Of a DNA stretch of 64,000 bases, positions 10,458-62,249 are shown piece after piece. The notes beneath the pieces are model-generated. The model was given only the letters and a program-made list of their open reading frames with translations, did not search any database and was not told where the DNA came from. Origin of the DNA: an uncultured candidate division Zixibacteria bacterium (GTDB taxonomy: Bacteria > Zixibacteria > MSB-5A5 > SM1-73); the NCBI GenBank assembly GCA_903908285.1, contig CAIVRH010000023.1, forward strand, positions 25,052-89,051, given 5' to 3'. Every line of letters begins with the position of its first letter. The first letter of the stretch is position 1. Position numbers and translations under genes: made by a program.

Positions 10458-11267
10458 ATGCTTTCTCAACTTTCGATTCCAGTATTATCCAAAAATATCC
10501 TGCAGGAAAAAATCTTTAGACTTACCCTTTCCTCTGCTTATATCTCCCAAAGGGCAAAGCCGGGGAATTTCGTTCATATCCGGGTCGGCTCCACCGGGAA
10601 TCCCCTTTTACGTCGGCCGTTCAGTATCCACTCCGTAGATATTTCCAAAAGCAGGTTTGACATTCTGTTCCGGGTCGTAGGAAAGGGGACGGAGCTTTTG
10701 TCCCAAGCAAATCCGGGCGAAGTTCTCGATATTCTCGGACCCATCGGTAATTCCTTTATCTTACCTCCTAAAAGCAAGGAGGTAATGTTGGTAGCCGGCG
10801 GAATGGGGATTGCTCCATTATGGTTCCTATTCACCCATATGTTGGCAAAAGGATTTGATCCGAGTCGGATAACTTTCCTCTTTGGCGCAAAGAATAAAAG
10901 AGAATTGCTCTACTTAGAGAAATTTAAGAAAAGCAAAGTGAAACTGCTGGTAACTACAGATGACGGAAGTCTGGGGAGTAAGGGTCTGGTTACCGAAGCT
11001 TTTCTCAAGGATATAATCGGTGGAAATCGGGATCATCAGAACTTAGCCGTTTATTCCTGCGGACCGGAGATGATGCTGGCAAGAATGTCTGATCTGGCTA
11101 AGGAATACGGTTTTTCCTGTCAAGTTTCTTTGGAAACCAACATGGCTTGTGGAGTAGGGGCTTGTTGGGGCTGTGTGGTAAAACTATCAGATGGGACTTA
11201 CCAGCGGGTTTGTGCAGATGGACCTGTGTTTGATGCCCAAAAAATAAATTTTTCAAAAATAGCATAA
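10458..11267 (+). CDS. pyrK: dihydroorotate dehydrogenase (class 1B) electron-transfer subunit
   Basis: FAD/NAD-binding ferredoxin-reductase fold with C-terminal CGVGACWGCVV...VCADGPVF [2Fe-2S] motif. Adjacent to pyrD. Start moved to the internal Met at 10458 to avoid overlap with the upstream gene. Confidence 0.85.
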   Translation: MLSQLSIPVLSKNILQEKIFRLTLSSAYISQRAKPGNFVHIRVGSTGNPLLRRPFSIHSVDISKSRFDILFRVVGKGTELLSQANPGEVLDILGPIGNSFILPPKSKEVMLVAGGMGIAPLWFLFTHMLAKGFDPSRITFLFGAKNKRELLYLEKFKKSKVKLLVTTDDGSLGSKGLVTEAFLKDIIGGNRDHQNLAVYSCGPEMMLARMSDLAKEYGFSCQVSLETNMACGVGACWGCVVKLSDGTYQRVCADGPVFDAQKINFSKIA

Positions 11268-12440: not shown

Positions 12441-13355
12441 TTACAATTCGCAAGGAGGAGGACCATGTTTGAAGAGATAGTTTATGGTGTAAACCACATC
12501 ACCGATATCGATTATACCATCGCAATTGGCGTCACCATTTAATGCCAAAGAGAGCATGGGGGTGAATATCCTTTCCGAGGGTGAAACACCTCCAAGAGTA
12601 TCGGCGCAATATGAGCTAATAAGCATGAGTGAATGTGACGGTGGTTTCTGTGTTGCGGATAAAGCGAGAGGATCACCATCCGCTAGCTTGGTGAAGTACA
12701 GCGTCGCTACCAGGCCGGTGGTTCCAGAATCAAGTGGTGTGTCTGTATACTCGTTTGCAAAAGGCAAGATCATTACTGTCTTATTGTCATTATCGATGGA
12801 GACTGTCATAGGCCAGCTAATGTTAAAATCTACGGATCCCGATCTGGACCAATCTGTCGGAATTATACTCCCGGCAAAACTTACACTGTCTAAAGTCACA
12901 TCTACTTCATTGGGTCGGCTGGCGTAACTTAAGGGAATTACCATGCCCATCAAATCTGGTCCGCCATTCTTAATTATCTTGATTTGAGTAGTTTCATGGT
13001 TATTGCCCCCACTAAAATAAATCAGGTCGACAAAGAATCTGATTTCACTTCCAACCCTCACAGAGGTTCCGGAATAAGGCAGTAAATCACAAAAAGGAGG
13101 GTAGAGATGGCCAATCAACTGTGTGATATCTCCTAAATTAATACCGGGTGAGCCATCCACATCAGCATCAATAGGATTGACGGGTGGGTTACCATTCTGA
13201 AACAGGTACTGGATTAGGTAAACTATGTCACCCACACTAACGATTGAATCAGCGTTAACATCTCCGAGAATGGCTGATGCCGGTGCAGCAAAAAAGCCAC
13301 CCCAGAGTATGGTAAAAAAGCCACAGAAAACCAAAAGAATTGCAAGTTTTTTCAT
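12441..13355 (-). CDS. secreted protein with dockerin-type-I-like repeats at both the N- and C-terminus, flanking a beta-rich middle domain
   Basis: Signal peptide, then GDVNADSIVSVGDIVYLIQYLFQNG...DADVDGSPGINLGDITQLIGHLY. The C-terminus has NGDANCDGIIDIGDVVYTINYLFKHGPPPC. The same motif recurs in four other proteins in this window. Confidence 0.6.
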   Translation of the reverse strand: MKKLAILLVFCGFFTILWGGFFAAPASAILGDVNADSIVSVGDIVYLIQYLFQNGNPPVNPIDADVDGSPGINLGDITQLIGHLYPPFCDLLPYSGTSVRVGSEIRFFVDLIYFSGGNNHETTQIKIIKNGGPDLMGMVIPLSYASRPNEVDVTLDSVSFAGSIIPTDWSRSGSVDFNISWPMTVSIDNDNKTVMILPFANEYTDTPLDSGTTGLVATLYFTKLADGDPLALSATQKPPSHSLMLISSYCADTLGGVSPSERIFTPMLSLALNGDANCDGIIDIGDVVYTINYLFKHGPPPCEL

Positions 13356-13936
13356 TTTCTCCTCTCCTTATGTAAAAAGATTATCTAATACAGTTCAATC
13401 TAACCATTCATTATTATAGAGACAACTTACCATTCTACCTCCTGGTTAAGGGTTATTCTTTAGTTGGTTGCTGGAATTGTTTTCCTAAAAAGAAAGCAAC
13501 ACCATCTACAAAATCAGTTGAGGATTAAATCAATTATTATGAAAATAATATAGACATGTTCCTGAGTTTGTCAAGTTTAAAAAGAAGAATTTAACTACTT
13601 TTGATTAACTCACACACTATGTGTAAGTTATCATCTAGAAGAATCTGGGGTGAGTGATAATAAATCCCTGTTAACCAGAATGATAAAATTGAATAAAGGT
13701 TGGAGTTATGGATTGTGGATGGAGTAAAATAGCCAAGCGAGAGATAATATAAATGAATGGTCAGGATGCCTTTTCTGTTTATCATCAAGTTTGAGATCAG
13801 GACATATTCTTTTCCTTTTCTTAAATGTATTGGAAAGGTATTTCTACTGAAGCAAGTGGATAAATTTTATCTCTATTAGCTATCTTCATCTTATAGAGAA
13901 GAGGAAATCGAGGTGAGGTCTTACATCATGGATTCT

Positions 13937-13963
13937 GTGCAAAAAAACAGGCGGGATTATTTA
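13937..13963 (-). terminator. rho-independent terminator of 14007..14882 (minus strand)
   Basis: ACAGGCGGGATtatttATCCTGCCTGT hairpin preceded on + by aaaaaaa (T-run on the minus transcript). Confidence 0.65.
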
Positions 13964-14006
13964 TCCTGCCTGTTATATTTAGACACTGAAGGCTACATCA
14001 ATGGGC

Positions 14007-14882
14007 TTACGATCCACAGGGAGGCGGTCCACCTCTGAACAGATAATTGATCGAATAGACTATATCTCCAATATCGACTCTCCCGTCGCAGTTGGCATCA
14101 CCCACCAGCCCCAAAGAGAGAACAGGGACAGTGATCCTTCGGGAGGGGGGAGTGCCGTCTGCGCAGTAGGCACTGATGAGCATGAGCGAATGGGAGGGAG
14201 GGATTTCGGTAATAGAGAGAGAGTGAGGGGTTCCATTAGCCGTCTTATTAAAATATAGGGTTGCCAACACACCGGTGGTTCCGGAATCGATCGGTGTTAT
14301 CCCAGTAAAATTGGCGCGAGAGGAGATGAGAACGGTCTTCTCCGTGTTATCGATACGAACAAGATTCTGATCCGGATTCCAGCTTGATGGAATTATGCTT
14401 CCGTAGAAACTCACACTGTCTAAAGTTACCTCAACCTCACCGGGTTGATCGGCATAGCTTAAAGGTATCACGAACCCCACTAAATCCGGTCCCTCATTCA
14501 ACAATATTTTGACACTGATGGTATCGGTAGGGCCGGAAGCCATAGGAGAAATCAAGTCTGAAGACAATAATATTTTACTGCCTAACTTTACGGAGGTTCC
14601 GGAGTAAGGAATAAGACTGCACCCGGTATAACAGTAACCGATTAGTTGCATTACATCACCCATATTGATACCCGAGGAGCCATCCACATCAGCATCAATA
14701 GGATTGACAGGAGGGGGTGAGTTCTTGTAAAGATAATTTATCAGGTAGACTATATCACCGGTCTCCACTGTGCCACTATTATTAATGTCTCCAGGAATGG
14801 CGGATACCGGTGTAACAAACAAACCGCACCAAAACATGGCTAAAAAGCCACAGAAGACTAAAGAAACTATAAGCTTTTTCAT
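14007..14882 (-). CDS. secreted double-dockerin-like protein, paralog of 12441..13355
   Basis: Same architecture and ~50% identity by eye (MKKLxxxLVFCGF..., GDIVYLINYLYKN, GINMGDVMQLIGY, C-terminal GDANCDGRVDIGDIVYSINYLFRGGPPPC). Confidence 0.6.
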   Translation of the reverse strand: MKKLIVSLVFCGFLAMFWCGLFVTPVSAIPGDINNSGTVETGDIVYLINYLYKNSPPPVNPIDADVDGSSGINMGDVMQLIGYCYTGCSLIPYSGTSVKLGSKILLSSDLISPMASGPTDTISVKILLNEGPDLVGFVIPLSYADQPGEVEVTLDSVSFYGSIIPSSWNPDQNLVRIDNTEKTVLISSRANFTGITPIDSGTTGVLATLYFNKTANGTPHSLSITEIPPSHSLMLISAYCADGTPPSRRITVPVLSLGLVGDANCDGRVDIGDIVYSINYLFRGGPPPCGS

Positions 14883-17474: not shown

Positions 17475-17501
17475 GGTTCGTAGTTCGTGGTTCGTGGTTG
17501 G
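17475..17501. repeat. (GTTCRTRG)n octamer repeat tract in the pyrR-pyrB spacer
   Basis: ggttcgtagttcgtggttcgtggttgg. Related tracts at 55909-55999 and 59683-59707. Confidence 0.6.
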
Positions 17502-40377: not shown

Positions 40378-40472
40378 AAGATTCGGGGAGGCAATGACGG
40401 GATTCGGTTATGTTGGGCAAGTTAAACAAAATAAATTGCAAATCTATTATTTTGATGTATATTTAATTTGAC

Positions 40473-40569
40473 GGAAGTGGATAGGATCTGGTGGTCCTTG
40501 CGGACTTCAAATCCGTCGTCCCTCCGGTTCTCCGGGGGGAGGTGGGTTCGATTCCCACCCCTTCCGCCA
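40473..40569 (+). tRNA. selC: tRNA-Sec (selC), anticodon UCA
   Basis: Hand-folded: acceptor GGAAGUG(G), 6-bp D-stem AGGAUC/GGUCCU with 4-nt loop (the Sec hallmark), anticodon stem GCGGA/UCCGU with loop CUUCAAA (UCA), long extra arm CCCUCCGGuucuCCGGGGGAGG, T-arm GUGGGuucgauuCCCAC, CCA encoded; 97 nt. Confidence 0.8.
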
Positions 40570-51031: not shown

Positions 51032-52459
51032 ATGAAAAACATTGGTAATATTATCAAGACATTACAAAACATTATGCGCAAAGACCCCGGTGTTTCCGGT
51101 GATGCTCAGCGGATTGAACAACTAGGCTGGATGATTAGTCTCAAAATTTTGGACGATAGCGACAAACAGCAGAAGTTGATAAACGACAACTACATATCCC
51201 CTATACCAAAATATCTACAGTGGCGGAGCTGGGCGGGTGATGATGAAGGTATGACCGGAGAAGATCTTAAAGAATTTGTTGACGGCACGTTAATACCAAA
51301 GCTTAAAAATCTTGATGTGAGTTCTGGTAATAAACGCGCACTCATTATTCGTGAAATATTTGATGGCACGAACAACTATATGAAGAACGGTACCATCCTT
51401 CGCCAAGTCATAAACCAGCTCAACCAGATTGATTTCAACAGTTCCGAGGATCGTCACGTTTTTGGAGATATCTACGAAACGATTCTGAAAGACCTGCAGA
51501 GTGCCGGGAATTATGGAGAGTTTTACACTCCTCGCGCACTTACTGAGTTTATGACGGAAATGATTAACCCGCGACTGGGCGAAAAAGTATTAGACCCGGC
51601 ATGCGGTACAGGAGGATTCTTAACCAGCGCAATTGAGAACATCCGCAAGCAGGATGTTAAGGGTGTAAAGGACCTCAAAGAGCTTGAGAAGACCATCCAC
51701 GGGATGGAATTTAAGCCTCTGCCCTTTATGCTAAGCGTTACGAACCTTATTCTGCACGATATCGAAGTCCCTAATATTGATTATATAGACAGCTTAAATC
51801 GCGAATATACCTCAATTGGGCATAAGGATCGGGTTGATGTAATTCTTGCTAATCCACCGTTTGGTGCGTCTGTTACGGATGGTGCTGAAACAAATTTCCC
51901 TCAGAATTTCCGCACCACAGAAAGCGCCGATCTTTTCCTGATGCTGATGATTCGGTATTTGAGAGACGGTGGGCGTGCCGGGATTGTTCTTCCGGACGGT
52001 TCGCTTATGGGCGACGGCGTAAAACAGCGCATCCGCCAGCATTTATTGGAGAATTGCAATTTGCACACTATTGTCCGCTTACCGAATTCGGTTTTTCAGC
52101 CCTATGCCAGTGTTGCCACCAATTTGCTTTTCTTTGAGAAAGGTAAACCTACTAAAGAGATCTGGTATTGGGAGCATAAACTTCCTGAAGGAATGAAAGC
52201 ATACAGTAAAACGAAGCTCATTCAGAAAAATGAATTTGACGGACTTAAAAAGTGGTGGAAGAAGCGCAAAGAGAATAAGCAGGCGTGGAAGGTCTCGATT
52301 AAAACGATAGCGGAAAATGGATATAGCCTTGACATCAAGAATCCGCACACACCTGAAGAAGAACAATCTTATTCGAGCTCTGAGATTGTCTCCATGCTTC
52401 ACGATTCATTCCGCAAAAGTGACGAGCTTCTGGACAAGCTAAAGAAGGAGCTTAGTTAA
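51032..52459 (+). CDS. hsdM: type I restriction-modification N6-adenine DNA methyltransferase subunit
   Basis: HsdM N-terminal domain, SAM-binding LDPACGTGGFL, catalytic NPPFG. Confidence 0.9.
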   Translation: MKNIGNIIKTLQNIMRKDPGVSGDAQRIEQLGWMISLKILDDSDKQQKLINDNYISPIPKYLQWRSWAGDDEGMTGEDLKEFVDGTLIPKLKNLDVSSGNKRALIIREIFDGTNNYMKNGTILRQVINQLNQIDFNSSEDRHVFGDIYETILKDLQSAGNYGEFYTPRALTEFMTEMINPRLGEKVLDPACGTGGFLTSAIENIRKQDVKGVKDLKELEKTIHGMEFKPLPFMLSVTNLILHDIEVPNIDYIDSLNREYTSIGHKDRVDVILANPPFGASVTDGAETNFPQNFRTTESADLFLMLMIRYLRDGGRAGIVLPDGSLMGDGVKQRIRQHLLENCNLHTIVRLPNSVFQPYASVATNLLFFEKGKPTKEIWYWEHKLPEGMKAYSKTKLIQKNEFDGLKKWWKKRKENKQAWKVSIKTIAENGYSLDIKNPHTPEEEQSYSSSEIVSMLHDSFRKSDELLDKLKKELS

Positions 52460-53742
52460 TGGCTGAATGGAAGACAATCGATGAGCTTTTCGATTACGGA
52501 AAAGGGACTTTGCAAAGTTCAAAGTGCTCGCCCGGCAAATACACCTTTATTACTGCCGCTGAAGAGTGGAAGACTCATGAAATATTCACGCACGACTGTG
52601 AGGCTTTAATATTTGCCATGGCGGCCTCTGGTTCGCTGGGCAGGACGCACTATGTGAATGGGAAGTTTATCTCCAGCGACCTTTGTTTCATCCTTACCCC
52701 CAAGAAGGGATTGCGACTCGACCTGACCTTCTACTATCGTCTCTTCAACTTCCTGCGGGCTGATATAGTCAAAAAGACTGCGACAGGCACTTCAAAGCTG
52801 GCGATTAACCAGACAAATTTTGGAGCGTACAGACTTCCTTATTTTGAGTACGAGCACCAGCTAAGTTTTAGGGGCAAGATAGAGACCATAACAGGCATTA
52901 ATGAAGCGTTTTCTAAGGGGATGGACTATCAGTTATCCCTTCTTGCTAAACTTCGTCAGGCCATGTTGCAGGAAGCTATTGAAGGTAAGCTCACAGCCAA
53001 ATGGCAAAAGTATAATCCGGAATTGATCAGCGGTGAAAATCACGCCTCAAAGCTCCTTGAGAGAATCCGAGCTGAGAAAGACAGCCTCCTCAAGGAAGTC
53101 AAGGTACGTAAAGAGAAACCTCTTTCTCCCATCACTGATGACGAAAAACCCTTTATCCTACCCGAGGGATGGGCGTGGTGTCGGTTGGGGGAAATTGGAA
53201 GCACTAATATAGGGTTGACTTATTCGCCCAATGACATATCTGATTCTGGTATTCCTGTGCTCCGCTCCAATAATATCCAAAATGGAACTATTGATTTAAA
53301 TAATCTTGTCAGAGTAAAAATGGAAATTAACGGAAGCCAATATATTAGAAAAGGAGATATCTTAATTTGCGCCAGAAATGGCAGTAAAGCATTGGTTGGG
53401 AAAGCAGCTCAGATTAAAAACATATCTGAATCGATGGCTTTTGGTGCATTCATGGCAATTTTTAGGAGTAGGTATAATGGTTACATCGAAATATTTTTAC
53501 AGTCGCCTATTTTTAGAAGACTGCTAGATAAAGTTAATACAATGACTATTAATCAATTAACTCAAAGTAATCTAAAAAATACAATTATTCCGTTTCCGCC
53601 ATCTGATGAGCAACAAGCCATTGTTGAATGGGTAGATAAACTGAAGGCTGTGATCGACGAAATGGAAAAACAAGTCACCAAGCGCAAATACCAGTCCGAA
53701 ATGCTGATGCAGTCGGTCTTACGAGAGGCATTTGCGGGGTAA
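52459..53742 (+). CDS. hsdS: type I restriction-modification specificity subunit (two TRDs)
   Basis: Two target-recognition domains separated by the conserved coiled-coil spacer (LSLLAKLRQAMLQEAIEGKL...). C-terminal conserved repeat ...MLMQSVLREAF. ATGA overlap with hsdM. Confidence 0.85.
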   Translation: MAEWKTIDELFDYGKGTLQSSKCSPGKYTFITAAEEWKTHEIFTHDCEALIFAMAASGSLGRTHYVNGKFISSDLCFILTPKKGLRLDLTFYYRLFNFLRADIVKKTATGTSKLAINQTNFGAYRLPYFEYEHQLSFRGKIETITGINEAFSKGMDYQLSLLAKLRQAMLQEAIEGKLTAKWQKYNPELISGENHASKLLERIRAEKDSLLKEVKVRKEKPLSPITDDEKPFILPEGWAWCRLGEIGSTNIGLTYSPNDISDSGIPVLRSNNIQNGTIDLNNLVRVKMEINGSQYIRKGDILICARNGSKALVGKAAQIKNISESMAFGAFMAIFRSRYNGYIEIFLQSPIFRRLLDKVNTMTINQLTQSNLKNTIIPFPPSDEQQAIVEWVDKLKAVIDEMEKQVTKRKYQSEMLMQSVLREAFAG

Positions 53743-53823: not shown

Positions 53824-53949
53824 AATAATCAGGCAAAGGTAAAAGTACTTGAGCGGGAGATAGACCAATCCTACGGATCCAAAGTCGGATTGGTGTATAA
53901 GCTCTATGGCTTAACCGAAGAGGAGATAAAGATTGTGGAGGGGGAATAA
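53824..53949 (+). pseudogene. orphan C-terminal fragment of a DNA methyltransferase / type IIG RM protein
   Basis: 41-codon ORF remnant ...LEREIDQSYGSKVGLVYKLYGLTEEEIKIVEGE*. The ...VYxLYGLTEEEIKIIE tail is the stereotyped C-terminus of N6-MTase/TaqI-like C-terminal-domain proteins. No upstream body remains. Confidence 0.55.
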
Positions 53950-54780
53950 CCAACCCCCCTACCCCCCTTATCAGGGGGGCAAAAAAGAAAGTCCCCCTGA
54001 CAAGGGGGATTCAGGGGGTTCTAAACACACAGACCCACCCCCCTTTCGAATTTCCCCCATTTTCAAGGGGGTTGGCTTTTGTAGCCGCAGACATTTGTCT
54101 GCGCAGGGGATCTGGTTTCTTGTCCCCCTGATATCGAACACGTAGCACCCGACCAAAGTTTACCCTGAGCATAGTCGAAGGGTGTCGGGCGTTTTTTCTA
54201 ATCTGTTCCATCCGTTGACCGTATTATCCCCCTCTCCACAAGTGTGGAGAGGGGGAATCAAAGGGGGTGAGGTCTCTCTATTTTTCTCTCTTACCACCAA
54301 TATAAATTCAATACAACTTCGGTGGTGAAAAGTACACCGTCCCAATAGGTGGAGGCACTAATGTTTTTTACATGTACCCAAATTCTCATGGAATCGAAGA
54401 ATTGCTTTGCATTTTGATTTTATGACCTTAAACCTTTCACCTTTAACCTTAGACCTTGAACCCTTGAACCTTTTCCGCCGAAGGCGGAGAACTCTCAACA
54501 ATAAATGCTTTTGACTTTATTGAACCTTTGAACTCTTGAACTTTTGAACTTTTATTCTCGAATCCTTGAACCTATAACCTGCCTTACGAATGGACTTTCT
54601 GATGATGAAAAAAATGAAAACCACGTTCCCCAAGCCCCCCAATCCCCCCATGCCCCCCCACGTTCGGCGAGTCACGCTTCCCCTCTCTTTTTTAAGAGAG
54701 GGGACACAGGGGTGAGTTCCAGGACTTTGAAAGAATGAAAAAATGAAATCCACAAGTCCAGTAAGTCAGGATTAATGAGC
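53950..54780. repeat. ~830-bp non-coding, hairpin- and repeat-rich tract
   Basis: Contains CCCCCTCTCCACAagTGTGGAGAGGGGG (54228-55), CCCCTCTCttttttaaGAGAGGGG (54681-704), CCGCCGAAGGCGG (54474-86), CCCCCTGAcaaGGGGG, and CCTTGAAC-type 7-mer runs (54424-54580). Only short low-complexity ORFs. Confidence 0.6.
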
Positions 54781-55655: not shown

Positions 55656-55817
55656 AGCAAGGTTTTTAAATTAACTTGGCAGTGGAATATTTTGCTTGCT
55701 TTTTGTTTTGAACGTCGTATATTCACAAAAAGTTTCGGGTTGCGTATAAGAGAAAGGAAATTTCGAGTTAGAAATTCAGAGGTTGGATTAATAACCGATC
55801 AATATAGATGAATAATT

Positions 55818-55899
55818 GGAGAGGTACCCAAGTGGCCAACGGGAACAGACTGTAAATCTGTCGGCGATGCCTTCGAAGGTTCGAATCCTTCCCTCTCCA
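55818..55899 (+). tRNA. tRNA-Tyr (GUA)
   Basis: Acceptor GGAGAGG/CCUCUCC, anticodon stem ACAGA/UCUGU with loop CUGUAAA, long variable arm, T-arm GGUUCGAAUCC. No encoded CCA. Confidence 0.8.
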
Positions 55900-55908
55900 T
55901 TTTTAAGG

Positions 55909-55999
55909 CAGTTATTAGTTCGTGGTTCATGGTTCGTGGTAAAACAATTTTTAAACGGGGTGGGGAACTACCTACTACGAACCCCGAACCAATAACTAA
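55909..55999. repeat. ~90-bp element with ~28-bp imperfect terminal inverted repeats built from GTTCRTGG octamers
   Basis: Left arm cagttattagttcgtggttcatggttcgtgg. Right arm ctactacgaaccccgaaccaataactaa is its imperfect reverse complement. ~32-nt loop between. Confidence 0.6.
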
Positions 56000-56003
56000 A
56001 AGC

Positions 56004-56240
56004 GCGGGAGTAACTCAGTTGGTAGAGTCTCCCGCCTATGGCGGGATGGTCGCGGGTCCGAAAGATAGAAGAATATGAATATGCGGGAGTAACTCAGTTG
56101 GTAGAGTCACCCGCCTATGGCGGGATGGTCGCGGGTCCGAAAGATAGAAGAATATGAATATGCGGGAGTAACTCAGTTGGTAGAGTCTCCCGCCTATGGC
56201 GGGATGGTCGCGGGTCCGAAAGATAGAAGAATATGAATAT
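56004..56240 (+). repeat. three perfect-to-1-SNP tandem 79-bp repeats, each a tRNA-Gly-derived pseudo-tRNA (5' acceptor + D-arm + CCCGCCtatGGCGGG hairpin + T-arm 5' half) plus a 21-nt AT-rich tail
   Basis: Units at 56004-56082, 56083-56161 and 56162-56240. The first 25 nt are identical to the tRNA-Gly at 56241. They lack the T-stem 3' half and acceptor 3' strand, so they are not functional tRNAs. Confidence 0.8.
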
Positions 56241-56313
56241 GCGGGAGTAACTCAGTTGGTAGAGTCACAGCCTTCCAAGCTGTTGGTCGCGGGTCCGAGT
56301 CCCGTCTCCCGCT
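56241..56313 (+). tRNA. tRNA-Gly (UCC)
   Basis: Acceptor GCGGGAG/CUCCCGC, D-arm ACUC-AGUUGGUA-GAGU, anticodon stem ACAGC/GCUGU with loop CUUCCAA, T-arm GCGGG-UCCGAGU-CCCGU. No CCA encoded. Confidence 0.8.
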
Positions 56314-56338
56314 ATTTTTTTGATTGATTCCCAACAAC

Positions 56339-56665
56339 TTAGCTTCCCATTTCCCCAATTTGTTTCAGTTTTGTTTCAACTTTATTACTGAAATTGAGCA
56401 CGTTGATGGCTTCCTGCTTGTGGCTTTTCGATAGGTGGGAATACTTCTCTGTGATCAGGAGAGAGGAGTGTCCGAGATATTCTTGGATTGTTCGGGAGTC
56501 GACGCCTTTCATGATTAGGTAGCTGGCGAAGGTATGGCGGAGTGCGTGCAGATTAGCACCCTGGATTCCTGTTTGCTTATTAACCTTTATTCCTATTTTT
56601 AAGGGTTTATTTAAAAAAGCCCAGTCAGTTACCTTCAGAAGTTGATTGTTTATGACGACGATCAA
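56339..56665 (-). pseudogene. truncated tyrosine recombinase/phage integrase (C-terminal catalytic fragment only)
   Basis: ...ANLHALRHTFASYLIMKGVDSRTIQEYLGHSSLLITEKYSHLS carries the HxxR...Y catalytic box. The first ~35 aa are unrelated and there is no room upstream for an N-terminal/core-binding domain. Immediately 3' of tRNA-Gly. Confidence 0.7.
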
Positions 56666-56896
56666 CAGGATGGAGAAATAGCCTTAATGGGTGGTTTCAT
56701 TGATTTCTGGGCAATAAAAATCCTGTCCCATCGTTGTCGCATAAATATTATTATACCTAACTACTCCTTAGTTAACAAGAATCTACTTGCTTTTTAAGAA
56801 ATTTGAGCTATTTTTCAATAAAAGAATCAAAACTTTGCTTACAACCATTAAACATGAAATAGCACTTTTTAACCATTCCAAGGACCGAAGGATAGC

Positions 56897-59212
56897 ATGT
56901 ACAGTCTATTTAATGAACTTTTCCTGGCTAGAGCCATATCAAATATAGCAAGATCGCGAAAACGAGGGAAACTCCTGATCCTTTTAGCATTACTGTTAAC
57001 TGCAACAACTGCCTGGGGTTATTGCCCAGAAGATAGTGTGGATAGAGGAAACTGTGATACGATGTATATAGAACCATGGCCTGCTGATGTCGCAGACAGT
57101 GTTTGGTCACATCCTGGACCATATTTTGTTAGAGTTCCTATCTACATCACTGACGATATATATGCATCTTACGATTCAATCCTAGCATTTACCATTCCTC
57201 TATGTTACACTCACACCAACCCGATGAAGTATTGCAGTGTCAGCACGTACTGGAATAGAACTCTGTGGAATACCTCAGGTTTATGGCGCAGTATCTTTAG
57301 ACACCTTCCCAGCAACCAAGATCCCCAAGTTCACAATTGGATGATGGACCTTTATGATGTTGGAGAAGGGTGGGAATGGGATAATATTTTTTTGGATATA
57401 GATAATACTTCACATTTTTGGTTGACTGTAATTAAAGGGATGAATGATCCGCGGTTTCTAGCAGGTAGCAGAATTCTTCTGGCAACTATGACCATGAAGC
57501 TAGAAGATACCATGAACATATGCATTGATACGTGCTTCTGGCCACCCTCCACCCGTTTGGCCTTTTTTGTTAATAACGAGTATGGCTCGGCTCAAGCCAA
57601 GCTTCCCAGATCAGGAACTGACACTTCAAGTTTTCAGTTTTGCTTTCCATATCAATTTCATGCTCCTCACGTCGTCTCTATCTCACCCATGCAAAATCAA
57701 CTGAATGTGCCTTTTAACACCAACATATCTGTGACTTTCGATATTAATGTACTTAAAACCACGATCAACGAATCAACTTTTCTGGTCAATGCATGGTCTA
57801 CCGGACTTCACCGAGGCACAATTACATACGACATCTTGACTAAAACCGCTACCTTGAATCCAACCCATGATTTCGACCAAGGTGAAATCGTAACCGTAGT
57901 TCTTAACACAGGCATAGAATCATCGACAGGAATCCCCATGGAAAGCAGTTATATCTGGTCGTTCACCACGAAAGTTAATGGTGGTTCCGCATGCTTTATA
58001 CCTCCAGTCAACTATGAGACAGGAGATCGGCCTTTAGGTGTTTTTTGTGCTGATTTGGATGGAGATGGAGATGTGGACTTAGCTGTAGTGAATGGGCTCA
58101 GGAACACGGTTTCCATACTGAAGAACAACGGAGATGGAACTTTTCAGCCTAAAGCGGATTACAACACAGGGGCTAATCCCGTTTTTGTTTCTTGTGCCGA
58201 CTTGGATAGGGATTCAGATTTAGACTTAGTTACAGCAAATACTGATAGCGATAATATTTCCGTGTTTAAGAACAAGGGGGACGGGATATTTGATATGGCA
58301 GTGAACTACGATGGTGGAGATGGTCCTTATTCTATTTTTTGCGCGGATTTAGATGGGGATGGCGATTTGGACTTAGCTGTGGCAAATGTTTCTAGCAACA
58401 ACGTCTCAATCTTGAAGAACAACGGGAATGGGACTTTTCAGACCGCGGTCAACTATGGTGTCGGTTTAGAGCCTCGTTCTATTTTCTGTGCGGATTTAGA
58501 TGGAGACAAAGATATGGACATAGTGGTGGGAAATTATTCAAGCAACAATGTTTCCATCTTAACGAACAATGGAGATGGCACATTCCAAGATACCGTTAAT
58601 TATGCTGCTGAGATTAGTCCCCGTTCTGTGTTTTGCGCGGATTTGGATGGAGATGGTGATTTAGATTTAGCTGTAGCCAACGTCAGTGGTAGTGTTTCTA
58701 TCTTCAAGAACAACGGGAATGGAACGTTTCAGGATAAGGTTAACTATAGTACTGGAGATTATGCTAATTCCGTATTTTGTTCGGATTTGGATGGAGATGG
58801 TGATCTGGACCTAGCGTTGTCATGTCCTGGTAGCTCTGGCGATATCTATGTTTACAAAAACATTGGGGACGGGACATTTGAGACCCCGGTGGTCTTCAAT
58901 GGTGAAGAAACCCCTTCATCTGTTTCTAGTTCGGATTTGGATGGAGATGGTGATTTGGACCTGGCTGTGACAAATTCCGAAAGTGACAATGTCTCGATTC
59001 TCTTTAATATTTACCGTGGTAACTGCAACGGCGATAGTGTAGTAGACATTGGTGATGTAGTATTCTTAATAAACTATCTTTTCAAGAGTGGTCCGGAGAT
59101 TCCTTGTTTGTCTGTCGGAGATGCTAATTGTGACGGAATGGTTAATATCGGTGATGTGGTTTACCTAAACAACTATCTCTTCAAATTAGGTCCACCGCTA
59201 ACCTGTAAGTAA
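56897..59212 (+). CDS. secreted FG-GAP/VCBS-repeat (integrin-alpha-like beta-propeller) protein with two C-terminal dockerin-like repeats
   Basis: Eight repeats of FCADLDGDGDLDLAVAN...SILKNNGNGTFQ. The C-terminus has GNCNGDSVVDIGDVVFLINYLFKSGPEIPC...GDANCDGMVNIGDVVYLNNYLFKLGPPLTC. Confidence 0.7.
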   Translation: MYSLFNELFLARAISNIARSRKRGKLLILLALLLTATTAWGYCPEDSVDRGNCDTMYIEPWPADVADSVWSHPGPYFVRVPIYITDDIYASYDSILAFTIPLCYTHTNPMKYCSVSTYWNRTLWNTSGLWRSIFRHLPSNQDPQVHNWMMDLYDVGEGWEWDNIFLDIDNTSHFWLTVIKGMNDPRFLAGSRILLATMTMKLEDTMNICIDTCFWPPSTRLAFFVNNEYGSAQAKLPRSGTDTSSFQFCFPYQFHAPHVVSISPMQNQLNVPFNTNISVTFDINVLKTTINESTFLVNAWSTGLHRGTITYDILTKTATLNPTHDFDQGEIVTVVLNTGIESSTGIPMESSYIWSFTTKVNGGSACFIPPVNYETGDRPLGVFCADLDGDGDVDLAVVNGLRNTVSILKNNGDGTFQPKADYNTGANPVFVSCADLDRDSDLDLVTANTDSDNISVFKNKGDGIFDMAVNYDGGDGPYSIFCADLDGDGDLDLAVANVSSNNVSILKNNGNGTFQTAVNYGVGLEPRSIFCADLDGDKDMDIVVGNYSSNNVSILTNNGDGTFQDTVNYAAEISPRSVFCADLDGDGDLDLAVANVSGSVSIFKNNGNGTFQDKVNYSTGDYANSVFCSDLDGDGDLDLALSCPGSSGDIYVYKNIGDGTFETPVVFNGEETPSSVSSSDLDGDGDLDLAVTNSESDNVSILFNIYRGNCNGDSVVDIGDVVFLINYLFKSGPEIPCLSVGDANCDGMVNIGDVVYLNNYLFKLGPPLTCK

Positions 59213-59240
59213 TTAACAGTATTCAGTTGTCAGAGATCAG

Positions 59241-59280
59241 GCCGAGCCTCTAAATCAGGGACTCGGCTTTCTTTTTAGTT
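59241..59280 (+). terminator. rho-independent terminator after 56897..59212
   Basis: GCCGAGcctctaaatcagggaCTCGGCtttcttttt. Confidence 0.65.
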
Positions 59281-59604
59281 TGTTTCAATCAATTTTTTCT
59301 GTTTCTTGCGGAATCCTCGCCTACGGAAAAGCGATGCATAATTAGGATCCTTTCGCAATTCGAACACTCTCTTACTGAAGTAGTCTTGAAATAGCTTTAT
59401 ACCGGTTTCACCATAAATCAGCGCTACATCTTGGATAAGAGCAACCCGAGAGAGCTTTCGACGGTATTTTCTATTGAATTCGTAGATTATCTGAGCGGAA
59501 ACAGGGTAATATTTCTTGAAATTCTCCCACCACTCATCCCAGTCAGGTCTCATAATGGCATAAGACTCTAAGAAATCTTTGACCCATCTTTTCAGTGCTT
59601 GCAT
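59275..59604 (-). CDS. hypothetical basic protein (109 aa)
   Basis: GGAGGTGA RBS 8 nt upstream of the ATG at 59604. Trp/Tyr-rich, Lys/Arg-rich C-terminus. No known domain. Confidence 0.45.
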   Translation of the reverse strand: MQALKRWVKDFLESYAIMRPDWDEWWENFKKYYPVSAQIIYEFNRKYRRKLSRVALIQDVALIYGETGIKLFQDYFSKRVFELRKDPNYASLFRRRGFRKKQKKLIETN

Positions 59605-59627
59605 TGAAAATCACCTCCTTCCTGTTT

Positions 59628-59672
59628 AGGGCTCCGAGTCCCGTCTCCCGCCTGTGGCGGGATGGTCGCGGG
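59628..59672 (+). repeat. distal partial tRNA-Gly repeat (candidate attR): 3' 19-24 nt of tRNA-Gly followed by the CCCGCCtgtGGCGGGATGGTCGCGGG unit
   Basis: tccgagtcccgtctcccgc (59633-51) is identical to tRNA-Gly 56294-56312. The next 21 nt match the internal unit of the 79-bp repeats with one change (tat->tgt). Confidence 0.7.
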
Positions 59673-59682
59673 ATATTAATTC

Positions 59683-59707
59683 AGTTCATGGTTCGGAGTT
59701 CGTAGTG
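59683..59707. repeat. GTTCRTGG-type octamer tract
   Basis: agttcatggttcggagttcgtagtg, immediately after the attR-like repeat. Confidence 0.55.
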
Positions 59708-59846
59708 AAGCATTTTTACGTTACCTGGTATTCCTCGATTTCTACTTGGGATATGCGTGGCATGTTTTGTTATGACTTATATAAAAAACAGGCTTTGGTC
59801 AAAAACCAAAGCTTGTTTTTTTGTCGTTCCGCAGAATAAAATTCAA

Positions 59847-62249
59847 TTACCAAATGGGATTTAAGAACAGACTGGATCTGGCGAACTTACTTCCCCAGGG
59901 TTGGGGTAGAAATCGTTGATAATCCTGCGGAGGGATACCGGATTTAAACAAATAGTTCAAAAGATAAACGACATCTGCCACGTCTACCAACCCATCGTGG
60001 TTTACATCTCCCTGATCGGCAAGGGGAAGAGGGGCAAGTCCTGACTTATACAGGTAGTTTATCAAATATACTACGTCACCCACGTCGAGTATCCGGTCTT
60101 GATTGCAATCTCCCCGATAGAGGCCAGCGTAACTAAGCATCGGTTTCCACCAGGAGGCGTTCATCAGATGCTGGGTGGTATCAACGCCAAAGATGATGAA
60201 AGACTCCAACACAGCAGAATCCGGAGATAGGGTTAACTTTCTTGGAGTCATAATTTGGCAGAAATCGGTATCGGGCGTAGAATAGTTGGTCCAACCGTAA
60301 GTGCTGACCAGATTCCACAGCTGGTCAAACCTCCATCCCTCCTGGGGCCAGATGTATACCGGATTCCTCACCCCTACGAAACTGTAACAGGCGCTGTCAT
60401 CTAAGGGAATCCTGAGCATTCCAAAACGATATTTCTTGTAAGCCGCCCGGGGATCCATCTGCCAGCCCAAGTTGTGGGTTTGGTCCATTCCGCCCAGGTT
60501 ATTGTAGGCATCGTAGATATCCCAATCCAGGCAGAGTGAAACATAGGCTTGTATGGCAGTATCGGCAAGGTTCCGGATCAAATACTGCTGAAGGATAAAT
60601 TCCCCATAAAGAGAATTTGATGATCCGACGGAATATTGACTTACTTCCACCCCCAGACCGATGGTATCGATAAATGCAGCTGCCCCGAACTGCCCGAAGG
60701 TAGTATCTTTAATGATCAAGCTTTCGAAGGGATACCAGCTGTCTTTTACATGGGTGTTAAACATGTCGAGGGCGATTGAAGTATCGCCTGGAGCCACCCA
60801 GGACAGAATCAGGGAGCCGTCAAAAAGCTCATTGATGCCATTCCATACGAAATCCTGACCGGAGGCATCTCCTATGGCACCGTAATTACTGACGGTCATA
60901 GAAACTTTATTGGAGTGGATGTTATTGTAATTATACGCACTGGCTGCACCCGGGCGAACGCCCACAGTGTAGCGTTCAGCGGTAGTTGACCAGTTCCAGT
61001 TTACCACAACCTCCACCGGAGTAGAGCTCCAGGTATCGTGCAAGCAGATATAATTGGTATCCGGAGGACCCCAGCCCATGGCACACATGCTATGATTCCC
61101 ATAAGTGGGATGAGAAATGACGTTCCAGACGGCCGGATATCCCAAGTTGAGCTCATTTATCAGATAGCTCAAGCTCTGATCGAAATCCGTATAATCGGTA
61201 AATCCATAGTTGTTTTGATAGTCGGGGTGATTGCATACGGTTCTGATCCCCGTACCGATGTTGGAGATGGAAGTCGAACCCTGGGTGGAGTCGGTATGCA
61301 TAGCCCAGGAGAGCTGCTGTTGAACGTTGGGAACATTATAATCCCATTCTCCCTCCAAAGGATCGTAGCGATTAAAGGTATAATCTATCAAAAGAGGATA
61401 CCCATTTGCATCCCAGTATCCCAACACGTCCGCAGCTGCGCTGGGAGAACAGCCATAGGACCAGTCGAAATCGGAAACGCCGGTGATGCGGAATTGAGCT
61501 TTACTATAGAAGATATTTTCCCCGTTCTCTATTTTTGCCCAATCCGCACTTGTTTTTTGCTTTTGCCCGGGGTTTGATTCAATCCGATAGGAGACGAAAA
61601 CCTCCTCGGCTGAATTTGCAGCAAAGTAAAACGGGGAAACATATGTTTTCCGGTTGCCGGAGGTGAATTCGAACCACACATCCCAAGGGGAAGCAAAGAC
61701 CACTTGAGTCAAATCTACCCGATCCGAGGAGAACTCCGCCTGGGCCACATTCGATGTTTTTTCCTTGGCTGTATAGTGCAGAGGGAGGCCATAGAAGTAT
61801 TCCACTACCGGCCCCCATTCCTTTCTGGCGGATACTACCACCGTCAGAAAATCTCCCGTCTGGGTGATCATCTGCCGGGCTGAACGGATATTCTCCGGAT
61901 CATTTTCTTTATTTCCTTGTTGGTATAGCTGCCATCCTTGAGAAACTTTTTGCAAAATTTGAGATTCGGCCGGAAAGCTGGCATCTTTCAATGAATAGAC
62001 GAACACATAGACCGCGGGTTCGGCGTCTACTCCCTGATAGGTTTGAACCGGTCCGGGAACGACTTGGCCGGATAAGCTCCGGGCAAAATCCGAAGCTGCT
62101 TTTTCAGCCAGATCGTAGGACACCAGTTCGCCGGAAAAATCGGGATGGAGAGTAACCGGGAGGGATACTTGTCGGTTGGTTGCATGAATCAATGAGCAGA
62201 ATATGAAACTTATCCCAACCAGCCCCAATAATAACAACGATTTTTTCAT
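59847..62249 (-). CDS. large secreted protein, streptopain-like (peptidase C10-like) cysteine peptidase candidate with two C-terminal dockerin-like repeats
   Basis: Signal peptide. YGCSPSAAADVLGYW resembles the C10 catalytic-Cys block (GCVATATAQIMKY) and GNHSMCAMGW the His block (GGHAFVIDG). The C-terminus has GDCNQDRILDVGDVVYLINYLYKSG...GDVNHDGLVDVADVVYLLNYLFKSGIPP. The peptidase assignment is tentative. Confidence 0.45.
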   Translation of the reverse strand: MKKSLLLLGLVGISFIFCSLIHATNRQVSLPVTLHPDFSGELVSYDLAEKAASDFARSLSGQVVPGPVQTYQGVDAEPAVYVFVYSLKDASFPAESQILQKVSQGWQLYQQGNKENDPENIRSARQMITQTGDFLTVVVSARKEWGPVVEYFYGLPLHYTAKEKTSNVAQAEFSSDRVDLTQVVFASPWDVWFEFTSGNRKTYVSPFYFAANSAEEVFVSYRIESNPGQKQKTSADWAKIENGENIFYSKAQFRITGVSDFDWSYGCSPSAAADVLGYWDANGYPLLIDYTFNRYDPLEGEWDYNVPNVQQQLSWAMHTDSTQGSTSISNIGTGIRTVCNHPDYQNNYGFTDYTDFDQSLSYLINELNLGYPAVWNVISHPTYGNHSMCAMGWGPPDTNYICLHDTWSSTPVEVVVNWNWSTTAERYTVGVRPGAASAYNYNNIHSNKVSMTVSNYGAIGDASGQDFVWNGINELFDGSLILSWVAPGDTSIALDMFNTHVKDSWYPFESLIIKDTTFGQFGAAAFIDTIGLGVEVSQYSVGSSNSLYGEFILQQYLIRNLADTAIQAYVSLCLDWDIYDAYNNLGGMDQTHNLGWQMDPRAAYKKYRFGMLRIPLDDSACYSFVGVRNPVYIWPQEGWRFDQLWNLVSTYGWTNYSTPDTDFCQIMTPRKLTLSPDSAVLESFIIFGVDTTQHLMNASWWKPMLSYAGLYRGDCNQDRILDVGDVVYLINYLYKSGLAPLPLADQGDVNHDGLVDVADVVYLLNYLFKSGIPPQDYQRFLPQPWGSKFARSSLFLNPIW

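Follow-up and report, generated by a model that had tools for sequence, protein, structure and literature searches.

Palindrome-tagged pseudo-tRNA units and a decayed integrative island at a tRNA-Gly locus of a candidate division Zixibacteria bacterium, with a possible link to small GIY-YIG genes

The free-standing GIY-YIG homing endonuclease SegB of phage T4 is encoded in a tRNA cluster and its site contains a T-psi-C stem-loop motif (PMC2330249), and in phage T6 a unit of tRNA gene and (truncated) segB undergoes tandem amplification that is driven by SegB and depends on recombination, with microhomology to the tRNA 5' end (PMC13096335). Judged by analogy, these phage systems appear to be the closest known counterpart of the loci described here, first seen around the tRNA-Gly(UCC) gene of an uncultured candidate division Zixibacteria bacterium, on a 64-kb stretch of DNA (contig CAIVRH010000023.1, positions 25,052 to 89,051) that was analysed as a whole and is hereafter called the window. 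The order in the window is three tandem pseudo-tRNA-Gly units at the 5' side, the tRNA-Gly gene, a decayed integrative island and, at its distal end, an attR-type copy of the tRNA 3' end fused to the remnant of a further unit. The bacterial loci share with the SegB systems the presence of a GIY-YIG gene among tRNA genes, the tandem units of partial tRNA plus open reading frame (ORF) seen in a flavobacterial contig (L198; L numbers denote the loci and contigs collected for comparison) and the position of many unit ends in the T-loop. They differ, however, in being chromosomal and not of phage, in having ORFs of 79-88 aa that comprise the catalytic domain only, and in that the repeated tRNA pieces are truncated, with a palindrome for the central arm—a feature unmentioned in both reports (PMC2330249, PMC13096335); the window itself, moreover, is without a nuclease gene.

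Several other described systems are of relevance. Tyrosine-integrase islands are bounded by a regenerated tRNA gene (attL) and a duplicated tRNA 3' end (attR), which the segment 56314-59760 fits fully; it departs from the pattern in its shortened integrase gene and in an attR that has been joined to an unrelated pseudo-tRNA unit; the tandem array upstream does not belong to that system. The 178-bp repeats of the E. coli tyrT operon, with the rtT RNA (RF00391), are also tandem, each with a piece of the neighbouring tRNA, and unequal crossing-over is thought to be their origin; they are located downstream of the tRNA and carry its 3' end (19 nt), whereas the present units are found upstream, contain the 5' part, positions 44-58 and the palindrome, and do not match RF00391. 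The likeness to repetitive extragenic palindromic (REP) sequences and bacterial interspersed mosaic elements lies in the shortness, high GC content and conserved stem of the palindrome and in its numerous copies, some of them away from tRNA, but the palindrome described here is nearly confined to the centres of partial tRNAs, crosses phyla and is accompanied by a GIY-YIG ORF, not by a REP-associated tyrosine transposase (RAYT). The tRNA-Other of Bacillus cereus is a complete cloverleaf at an island-prone tRNA locus, with no role in translation (PMC3399842); unlike it, our units are truncated, tandem, devoid of an anticodon loop and undetected as tRNA. Neither full-text literature searching aimed at the architecture nor Rfam yielded a description of palindrome-tagged pseudo-tRNA arrays associated with GIY-YIG genes, the SegB papers being the nearest.

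The locus is probably best explained by the superimposition of two things—the island and a set of older pseudo-tRNA units—the latter being taken as homology arms, or as footprints, that stem from a small GIY-YIG cassette and are present here without its ORF.

Tandem units upstream of tRNA-Gly

The first-pass annotation, made from the letters of the window, had described three head-to-tail 79-bp units, each with the 5' third of the tRNA and a hairpin. This arrangement is reproduced by Tandem Repeats Finder (79-bp period, 3.4 copies, 98% matches, score 516, at 56004-56268) and by the anatomy of the sequence itself, in which an exact copy of tRNA positions 1-26 is followed by the palindrome TCCCGCCTATGGCGGGA (7-bp stem, 3-nt loop), by TGGTCGCGGGTCCGA, corresponding to tRNA positions 44-58 and absent from the earlier description, and by an A/G-rich spacer of 21 nt. 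Unit 2 has A for the first T of the palindrome; this is the A27 of the real tRNA-Gly, and the match to the tRNA covers positions 1-28 (56083-56110). Such a hybrid is expected from a crossover between a unit and the tRNA. Tandem Repeats Finder also gives a 158-bp super-period in the array.

The features of a functional tRNA gene are absent from the units, which have neither the 3' strand of the T-stem nor that of the acceptor, and possess a 3-nt loop instead of the anticodon loop. They are called as tRNA neither by ARAGORN nor by Rfam RF00005 even at E<=1, and no Rfam family, rtT RF00391 included, matches them at this threshold. Folding of the 79-bp unit, which the first-pass annotation had proposed along with a tRNA-derived structured RNA as a possible reading, gave energies (z = -1.4 and -0.6) that do not surpass those of shuffled sequences. 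In the minimum free energy (MFE) fold the 5' acceptor strand pairs with the left arm of the palindrome around an intact D-arm.

Three further possibilities were considered and rejected. Concerning a promoter or terminator role, the array contains no consensus promoter, the counts equal the shuffle expectation and no T-run follows the hairpin. As for an integron attC array or a cluster of attC sites lacking an integron integrase (consensus RYYYAAC...GTTRRRY), the only GTT candidate, GTTGGTA, fails the consensus and an inverse core is missing. An origin of the units by simple tandem duplication of the upstream spacer with tRNA 1-58 is contradicted by the sequence preceding unit 1, which is not spacer; their later amplification would still be explained by unequal crossover.

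The array is real. Its junctions recur in L001-L004 and L188, contigs assembled independently from further samples containing this strain, and the contigs of one sample break within it. In two large contigs (samples ERZ1426824, ERZ1426812) the interval from the FG-GAP gene to suhB is 1159 bp and 1317 bp, the longer one agreeing with the window. The two intervals differ by 158 bp, the length of precisely two units, and it follows that the number of three copies is either subject to polymorphism or assembled insecurely.

The array is preceded by a long heptamer-rich hairpin (LH) with an RNA folding energy of -35.3 kcal/mol (z = -4.17), which is kept in Zixibacteria relatives and has been co-duplicated with 'type B' units in L010, L011, L177 and L179; heptamer runs resembling it are also present at positions 17475-17499 and 59680-59706 of the window. 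The Zixibacteria relatives, collected via the neighbouring inositol-monophosphatase gene, by which the window is assigned to Candidatus Zixibacteria, retain the order SuhB, tRNA-Tyr, tRNA-Gly(UCC), variable gap and tRNA-Thr(GGT), the gap between tRNA-Gly and tRNA-Thr measuring 1.1-8.7 kb. From one to four homologous units, with species-specific, purine-rich spacers, are found upstream of tRNA-Gly in at least 12 other contigs of Zixibacteria lacking the island; L007, L022 and L017 have none there. Mirror-image 3' units, in which a portion of the D-arm precedes the palindrome and tRNA positions 44-72, occur downstream of tRNA-Gly in L008, L017/L185, L179 and L184. The left ends of the 3' units lie at tRNA positions 8-17 and the right ends of the 5' units at 52-58; many of the 3' copies bear T-loop inserts of 20-90 nt, and a complete copy with both acceptor strands was found nowhere among the units. 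In L009, L178, L177 and L167 the outermost units are the most diverged, i.e. the decay proceeds from outside inward. A metagenome scan revealed the same units in high-GC lineages other than Zixibacteria, within the cluster Thr-Tyr-Gly-Thr-rpmG-Trp; species-representative genomes, scanned for exact matches to the hairpin unit, gave none.

It may be added that two loci have other cargo between the 5' pseudo-unit and tRNA-Gly: in L012 (reverse strand, 5970-7250) two ORFs, i.e. an AIG2/gamma-glutamylcyclotransferase-like gene and an ORF of 194-218 aa without an assigned family, and in L178 (reverse strand, 700-1990) a 352-aa YARHG-domain protein.

The palindrome family and the small GIY-YIG genes

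The units are members of a widespread family, in which partial copies of a tRNA have the palindrome (A)TCCCGCC-NNN-GGCGGGA(T) in place of the central arm. Membership was assigned to partial copies of the adjoining tRNA whose central arm reads (A)TCCCGxx-N2-6-xxCGGGA(T), as it does in the window both in the units (56004-56240) and in the distal remnant (59643-59672). Among 28 distinct Gly unit cores, originating from 26 contigs, the stem CCCGCC/GGCGGG is invariant in 27, the three-base loop is represented by 10 different triplets, and the outer A/T pair is kept or lost on both sides together. The stem remains invariant despite a divergence of 15-30% in the spacers and flanks of the genomes concerned. 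In a census of 0.9 Mb of collected loci, perfect TCCCGxx..xxCGGGA palindromes were situated nearly all within partial tRNA copies, with only three copies (L020/L175, L182) unrelated to tRNA.

The family flanks tRNA-Gly, -Ser, -Asp and -Asn in Zixibacteria, high-GC lineages, Bacteroidota and the candidate phyla radiation (CPR), and in most cases is accompanied by a GIY-YIG nuclease ORF of 80-90 aa. Related palindromes, TCCCGAG-NN-CTCGGGA and TCCCGAC-N3-6-GTCGGGA, are present in pseudo-tRNA-Asp and -Asn copies and in T-loop inserts of Gly pseudo-units; the inner stem pairs thus vary by tRNA type (CC/GG, AG/CT, AC/GT), yet stay complementary. The locus L016:13302-13990 of a Zixibacteria-like metagenome-assembled genome (MAG) begins with a tandem pair of 81-bp pseudo-tRNA-Ser units, each bearing TCCCGCC-NNN-GGCGGGA; these are followed by the real tRNA-Ser(GCT), then by a GIY-YIG ORF and lastly by a 3' pseudo-tRNA-Ser that has the palindrome as well as a T-loop insert of 66 nt. 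The palindrome, despite its likeness to the Gly acceptor stem, is therefore not specific to tRNA-Gly, and the copies at Ser, Asp and Asn also weaken its derivation from that stem (TCCCGC/GCGGGA) along the lines of half-tRNA minihelices or permuted and split tRNAs. Truncated tandem copies without an anticodon loop exist for tRNA-Thr(GGT) too, upstream of the place of the real tRNA-Thr in L178 (reverse strand, 9157-9323; the contig ends within this array) and L017 (reverse strand, 13875-14140), with a short TCCGTA(C/T)GGA hairpin, ATCCGTACGGAA or ATCCGTATGGAA. In viral contigs, a loose hairpin pattern hit 120 loci, which should be regarded as chance hits because none has a tRNA D-arm junction; two specific junction patterns had no match there.

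A small GIY-YIG ORF accompanies the repeat in L008, L012, L016, L168, L174, L184 and L187, and in high-GC loci, L008 and L012 an ORF of 79-84 aa lies between tRNA-Gly and a unit. Pfam confirmed PF01541 (GIY-YIG) for five of these ORFs, those of L016 and L174 being assigned by tblastn similarity to the five proteins. If only the eight GIY-YIG ORFs in loci not collected through a GIY-YIG protein are counted, seven of them touch a pseudo-tRNA copy with a hairpin central arm; the hairpin is the TCCCG..CGGGA palindrome in five cases and the short ATCCA..TGGAT form in L008 and L012. In each of L016 and L184, 5' units without an ORF share the locus with the real tRNA, a 3' unit and the GIY-YIG ORF. 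Since L016 has both, 5' arrays without an ORF, such as that of the window, do coexist with a GIY-YIG ORF.

Homologues of the Zixibacteria GIY-YIG ORF were traced into other phyla. In a member of the Flavobacteriaceae (L198:1305-2319) three tandem 313-bp units, each composed of tRNA-Asp 1-22, TCCCGAGCACTCGGGA, the anticodon arm and the GIY-YIG ORF, stand before the real tRNA-Asp; the number of such units is two (L203, L204) or one (L205) in nearly identical contigs of other samples. A gene for an integrase follows tRNA-Asp in L203 and L204. The Chitinophagales locus L199 consists of tRNA-Asp, a GIY-YIG ORF and a 3' fragment with TCCCGAGTACTCGGGA in the T-loop, and a CPR locus (L201) has a comparable layout at tRNA-Asn. 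With its location in a tRNA cluster and its partial, tandemly amplified tRNA duplication, the window parallels L198 and L203, which have the ORF, and the ORF-less 5' array of L016; tblastn detected no GIY-YIG gene in its whole length. A GIY-YIG ORF of the same family was also seen away from tRNA, after lepA in a Planctomycetota MAG (L043:1530-1800), with the arms of a 12-nt inverted repeat, CCCCGTTAGAGA / TCTCTAACGGGG, on either side.

The integrase island and its distal tRNA copy

The segment between tRNA-Gly and position 59760 is a decayed tRNA-targeting integrative island of an ordinary, known kind, as follows from an intact integrase in L022, from empty sites in L177 and L179 and from a 22-nt direct repeat. 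The first-pass annotation had recognised such a decayed element, together with the C-terminal catalytic stump of a tyrosine integrase directly 3' of tRNA-Gly, and in both it was right. The stump ORF, 56339-56665 on the minus strand, matches positions 116-171 of the 172 of the Pfam profile PF00589 (E 4e-13); the remnant lies 26 nt from the tRNA-Gly end and shares 76% identity over 79 aa with codons 275-353 of the L022 integrase (tblastn). The latter, an intact 356-aa protein abutting tRNA-Gly in the same position, is the full-length homologue that the annotation had suggested looking for. Positions 56240-56560 align (blastn) to the tRNA and integrase codons 275-356 of L022, and the block 56614-56789 aligns with 73.6% to L022rc 12452-12626 and 75% to L189rc 11086-11224 (rc, reverse complement), i.e. 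upstream of the integrase start codon. Between the two blocks ~890 bp (codons 1 to ~274 and the leader) are missing, and the stump is therefore an internal-deletion derivative. Splitting of an SSV-type integrase by integration was rejected, because the gene is broken at a point distant from the att site.

Among the relatives whose DNA spans the site, the closest, L177 and L179 (flanks 75-84% identical at the nucleotide level), are empty: the terminator and the 800-aa gene of the right flank directly adjoin tRNA-Gly there, within ~200-250 nt of it, and the blastn homology of the window to L177rc/L179rc ends at 56319 and restarts at 59761/59777. The comparison, which had been proposed earlier, favours an island over a coincidental distal copy. 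The repeat itself comprises 56291-56312, the last 22 nt of the tRNA and the identity block of the attL side, and 59630-59651 (21/22 identical). An island still mobile would have an intact integrase and an excisionase, whereas here the integrase gene bears the deletion and no excisionase is found among the four largest ORFs of the island, the only ones run through Pfam. The homology search with the 109-aa orphan ORF returned the protein itself as the sole database match; large secreted or dockerin proteins comparable to the FG-GAP protein adjoin the integrase in L022 and L197.

Homologues of the integrase (73-86% identity) abut the 3' ends of tRNA-Gly(GCC) or tRNA-Ala(GGC), with an HTH_17 gene alongside, this domain being typical of excisionases. 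The sequence right after the tRNA is conserved among the loci of this integrase family. In the 10-kb flanks of L022 and of the intact-integrase loci L189-L197 no attR repeat was found, and the att core of the family is thus not definable from its active members. It is worth mentioning that the integrases of L189, L191, L197, L193-L196 and L022 are only 14-27% diverged, yet occupy three different tRNA genes (Gly-GCC, Ala-GGC and Gly-UCC), which suggests that the clade switches its target tRNA rapidly.

As to the distal copy, its fusion to the same hairpin unit, also reported in the first-pass annotation, is evident at 59630-59672. The 19-nt sequence TCCGAGTCCCGTCTCCCGC recurs exactly at 59633-59651 (two matches against 0.01 expected by chance), and the 30-nt hairpin block GTCTCCCGCCTGTGGCGGGATGGTCGCGGG, at 59643-59672, differs in one base from the unit and overlaps the tRNA 3' repeat. 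The stretch 59643-59706 is 92% identical over 64 nt to unit B plus LH of L179, a contig in which a 3' pseudo-unit is located 18 nt downstream of tRNA-Gly. The repeat and the remnant are joined via the common 9-nt stretch GTCTCCCGC, the tRNA 3' end CCCGTCTCCCGC and the unit GAGTCTCCCGCC having nine bases in common. Based on these sequences, the distal copy would be the attR of the island fused to a 3' pseudo-unit already standing downstream of tRNA-Gly, and a small deletion at the microhomology of nine bases, before or after the arrival of the island, could have produced the fusion.

Table 1 Features of the tRNA-Gly locus in the window
Feature	Position	Strand	Remarks
tRNA-Tyr(GUA)	55817..55900	+	ARAGORN; Rfam 57.7 bits; upstream neighbour of array
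Long heptamer-rich hairpin (LH)	55911..56003	+	GGTTCGT/GGTTCAT repeats; between tRNA-Tyr and array
Pseudo-tRNA-Gly 5' unit 1	56004..56082	+	palindrome TCCCGCCTATGGCGGGA at 56030-56046, tRNA 44-58 at 56047-56061
Pseudo-tRNA-Gly 5' unit 2	56083..56161	+	sequence of unit 1 except A at position 27
Pseudo-tRNA-Gly 5' unit 3	56162..56240	+	same sequence as unit 1
tRNA-Gly(UCC)	56241..56313	+	ARAGORN; Rfam 65.5 bits; functional-looking
Window-specific insert, decayed integrative island	56314..59760		absent from relatives L177, L179
Tyrosine-integrase remnant	56339..56587	-	equals codons 275-356 of intact L022 integrase
Region conserved upstream of integrase start codon in L022, L189	56614..56789		blastn; far side of deletion
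Island cargo, 771-aa secreted FG-GAP / Big_5 / dockerin-like protein	56897..59212	+	Pfam
109-aa orphan ORF at distal island end	59275..59604	-	no Pfam/NCBIfam match
attR-type direct repeat of tRNA-Gly 3' end (T-loop to position 72)	59630..59651	+	21/22 identical
Remnant of pre-existing pseudo-tRNA unit	59643..59706	+	palindrome TCCCGCCTGTGGCGGGA (59646-59662), TGGTCGCGGG, LH 5' arm
Conserved right flank, terminator hairpin and gene for 800-aa C39-like/dockerin protein	59792..62249	-	
Units between tRNA-Tyr and tRNA-Gly in island-less contigs			L006, L009, L010/L183, L011, L020/L175, L169, L170, L177, L178, L179

In the surroundings of the locus, the ORF-poor stretch 53930-54750 between hsdS and suhB is rich in palindromes of C-runs and G-runs (CCCCCTGA...AGGGGG type) and contains ACCTTNA/GAACCTT heptamer repeats; a near-copy of the unit palindrome, TCCGCCGAAGGCGGA, is found within it at 54474-54488. 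The type I restriction-modification specificity gene hsdS (52459-53742), with hsdM and hsdR just past it in contigs of the same strain, and a tRNA-SeC gene (40472-40568) are unrelated to both the array and the island.

Origin of the units

In the reading preferred here, the island would have integrated by a crossover in the T-loop/3' end of tRNA-Gly and decayed afterwards. The units would be tRNA-homology arms, or footprints, of a small GIY-YIG cassette residing in tRNA genes, and the slots between a unit and the real tRNA would hold a short spacer, a GIY-YIG ORF of ~80-90 aa or other small cargo. As tRNAs hardly differ in sequence between taxa, the arms could be used in any genome, and the cassette would enter the cognate tRNA gene by recombination without loss of an intact tRNA copy. 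The palindrome may then represent a sequence-specific element of the cassette—a dimer-binding site, a cleavage site or a hairpin required by the nuclease—and the array may grow and shrink by unequal homologous recombination between unit and tRNA, either ordinary or stimulated by the nuclease. The amplification by unequal crossover of this kind is suggested by A27 of unit 2, the 158-bp super-period and the 158-bp difference between assemblies. The three units of the window would be a locally amplified remnant of a cassette array without the ORF.

It is also quite possible, although put forward more tentatively, that the loci define an undescribed class of chromosomal selfish cassette in the tRNA genes of several phyla, made up of a GIY-YIG nuclease reduced to the catalytic domain, the palindrome ATCCCGnn...nnCGGGAT and tRNA homology arms. 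A cassette of this class would keep an intact tRNA beside itself and leave behind palindrome-tagged 5' and 3' pseudo-tRNA arrays, those without the ORF, such as the window's, being its non-autonomous or fossil form.

Several observations weigh against the cassette. There is no GIY-YIG gene in the 64-kb window and most of the Zixibacteria arrays are without a nearby ORF, so that the link of the window to these nucleases consists in family resemblance and co-occurrence at other loci. The predicted ORFs (79-88 aa) comprise the catalytic domain only and are without the DNA-binding domain of SegB-type homing enzymes, and an intact tRNA beside the cassette would stay a target of a nuclease recognising tRNA genes. 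The unit boundaries vary within the ranges given above for both kinds of unit, and such ragged ends suggest decay more than a single precise reaction. An RNA hairpin or protein-binding site under host selection would likewise be consistent with a stem that is invariant and a loop that is free. Finally, the palindrome occurs a few times away from tRNAs (L020/L175, L182), and the viral contigs scanned contain no palindrome-bearing unit.

The alternative of a host-selected element—a structured RNA cut from the transcript of the tRNA operon, tRNA-like though lacking an anticodon and serving e.g. as a processing signal or decoy, or else an array of binding sites for a dimeric DNA-binding protein, with one hairpin or site per unit—is considered unlikely. 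It would account for the stem kept invariant in genomes with spacers and flanks diverged by 15-30% while the loop is free, and for the inner stem pairs that differ by tRNA type and remain complementary; the units would be co-transcribed within the tRNA operon, the same truncated tandem upstream layout is seen at tRNA-Thr (L178, L017) and tRNA-Ser, and in the MFE fold the acceptor strand pairs with the left palindrome arm around the D-arm. That fold is, however, unremarkable against shuffled sequences and the alternative pairing is lost in the short-hairpin variants (ATCCAxxTGGAT, CCCGTACGGG); no Rfam family matches, the presence and number of units vary among close relatives (none upstream in L007, L022 and L017), their ends are ragged, many 3' copies have inserts in the T-loop and a copy with both acceptor strands has not been found.

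Somewhat more doubtful still is the view of the units as neutral debris, in which old partial tandem duplications of tRNA would have been hit by a genome-wide REP-like palindrome, the GIY-YIG gene being an unrelated tenant. The varying number of units, the divergence of the outermost ones in L009, L178, L177 and L167, the few palindromes outside tRNA contexts and the close variant at 54474-54488 of the window are all compatible with it, but partial tRNA copies contain nearly all perfect palindromes in the 0.9 Mb, the palindrome takes the place of the copy's centre in four tRNA types and several phyla, and seven of the eight independently sampled GIY-YIG ORFs touch a hairpin-bearing copy; a chance co-location of three rare features is unlikely.

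The first-pass annotation had offered the units as possible successive att scars, part of an unusual att architecture, of tyrosine-integrase elements at tRNA-Gly. The right end of each 5' unit does lie in the T-loop, where the identity block of the island starts, and the locus is an integration hot spot, as the variable Gly-to-Thr gap of the relatives illustrates. This origin is nevertheless largely refuted and very improbable: since the units occur in relatives without the island, many of which have no integrase remnant at all, they are not its scars; they lie upstream, whereas the integrase family leaves its element downstream of an intact tRNA; the att regions of the same family at tRNA-Gly(GCC) and tRNA-Ala carry no such hairpin; replacement of the anticodon arm is not an outcome of a T-loop crossover; and the palindrome is found in partial copies of tRNA-Ser, with a related one in those of tRNA-Asp and tRNA-Asn, beside genes for GIY-YIG proteins and not for integrases. 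An artefact of short-read metagenome assembly, to which the contigs breaking in the array and the two assemblies differing by two units might point, is largely excluded and hardly credible, the unit/tRNA and unit/unit junctions having been seen again in several samples and homologous arrays in many other species and assemblers, so that the copy number alone is uncertain.

Based on the above, the finding is best classed with the tRNA duplication and amplification associated with homing endonucleases, and the chance that it marks an undescribed cassette family is substantial. The units constitute a sequence-conserved, cross-phylum signature beside tRNA genes that is missed by tRNA finders and Rfam. 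Two kinds of tRNA-linked repeats—the att scars of integrases and the palindrome-tagged units—are here told apart, which tools for island finding may confuse. If the link to GIY-YIG genes is true, the 80-100-aa proteins of a very large family that bear no annotation but 'GIY-YIG nuclease family protein' would gain a function and a means of mobility, the frequent assembly breaks at tRNA clusters in these lineages would be accounted for, and homing and segmental amplification of the SegB type, centred on tRNA, would be a matter of bacterial chromosomes as well as of phages.

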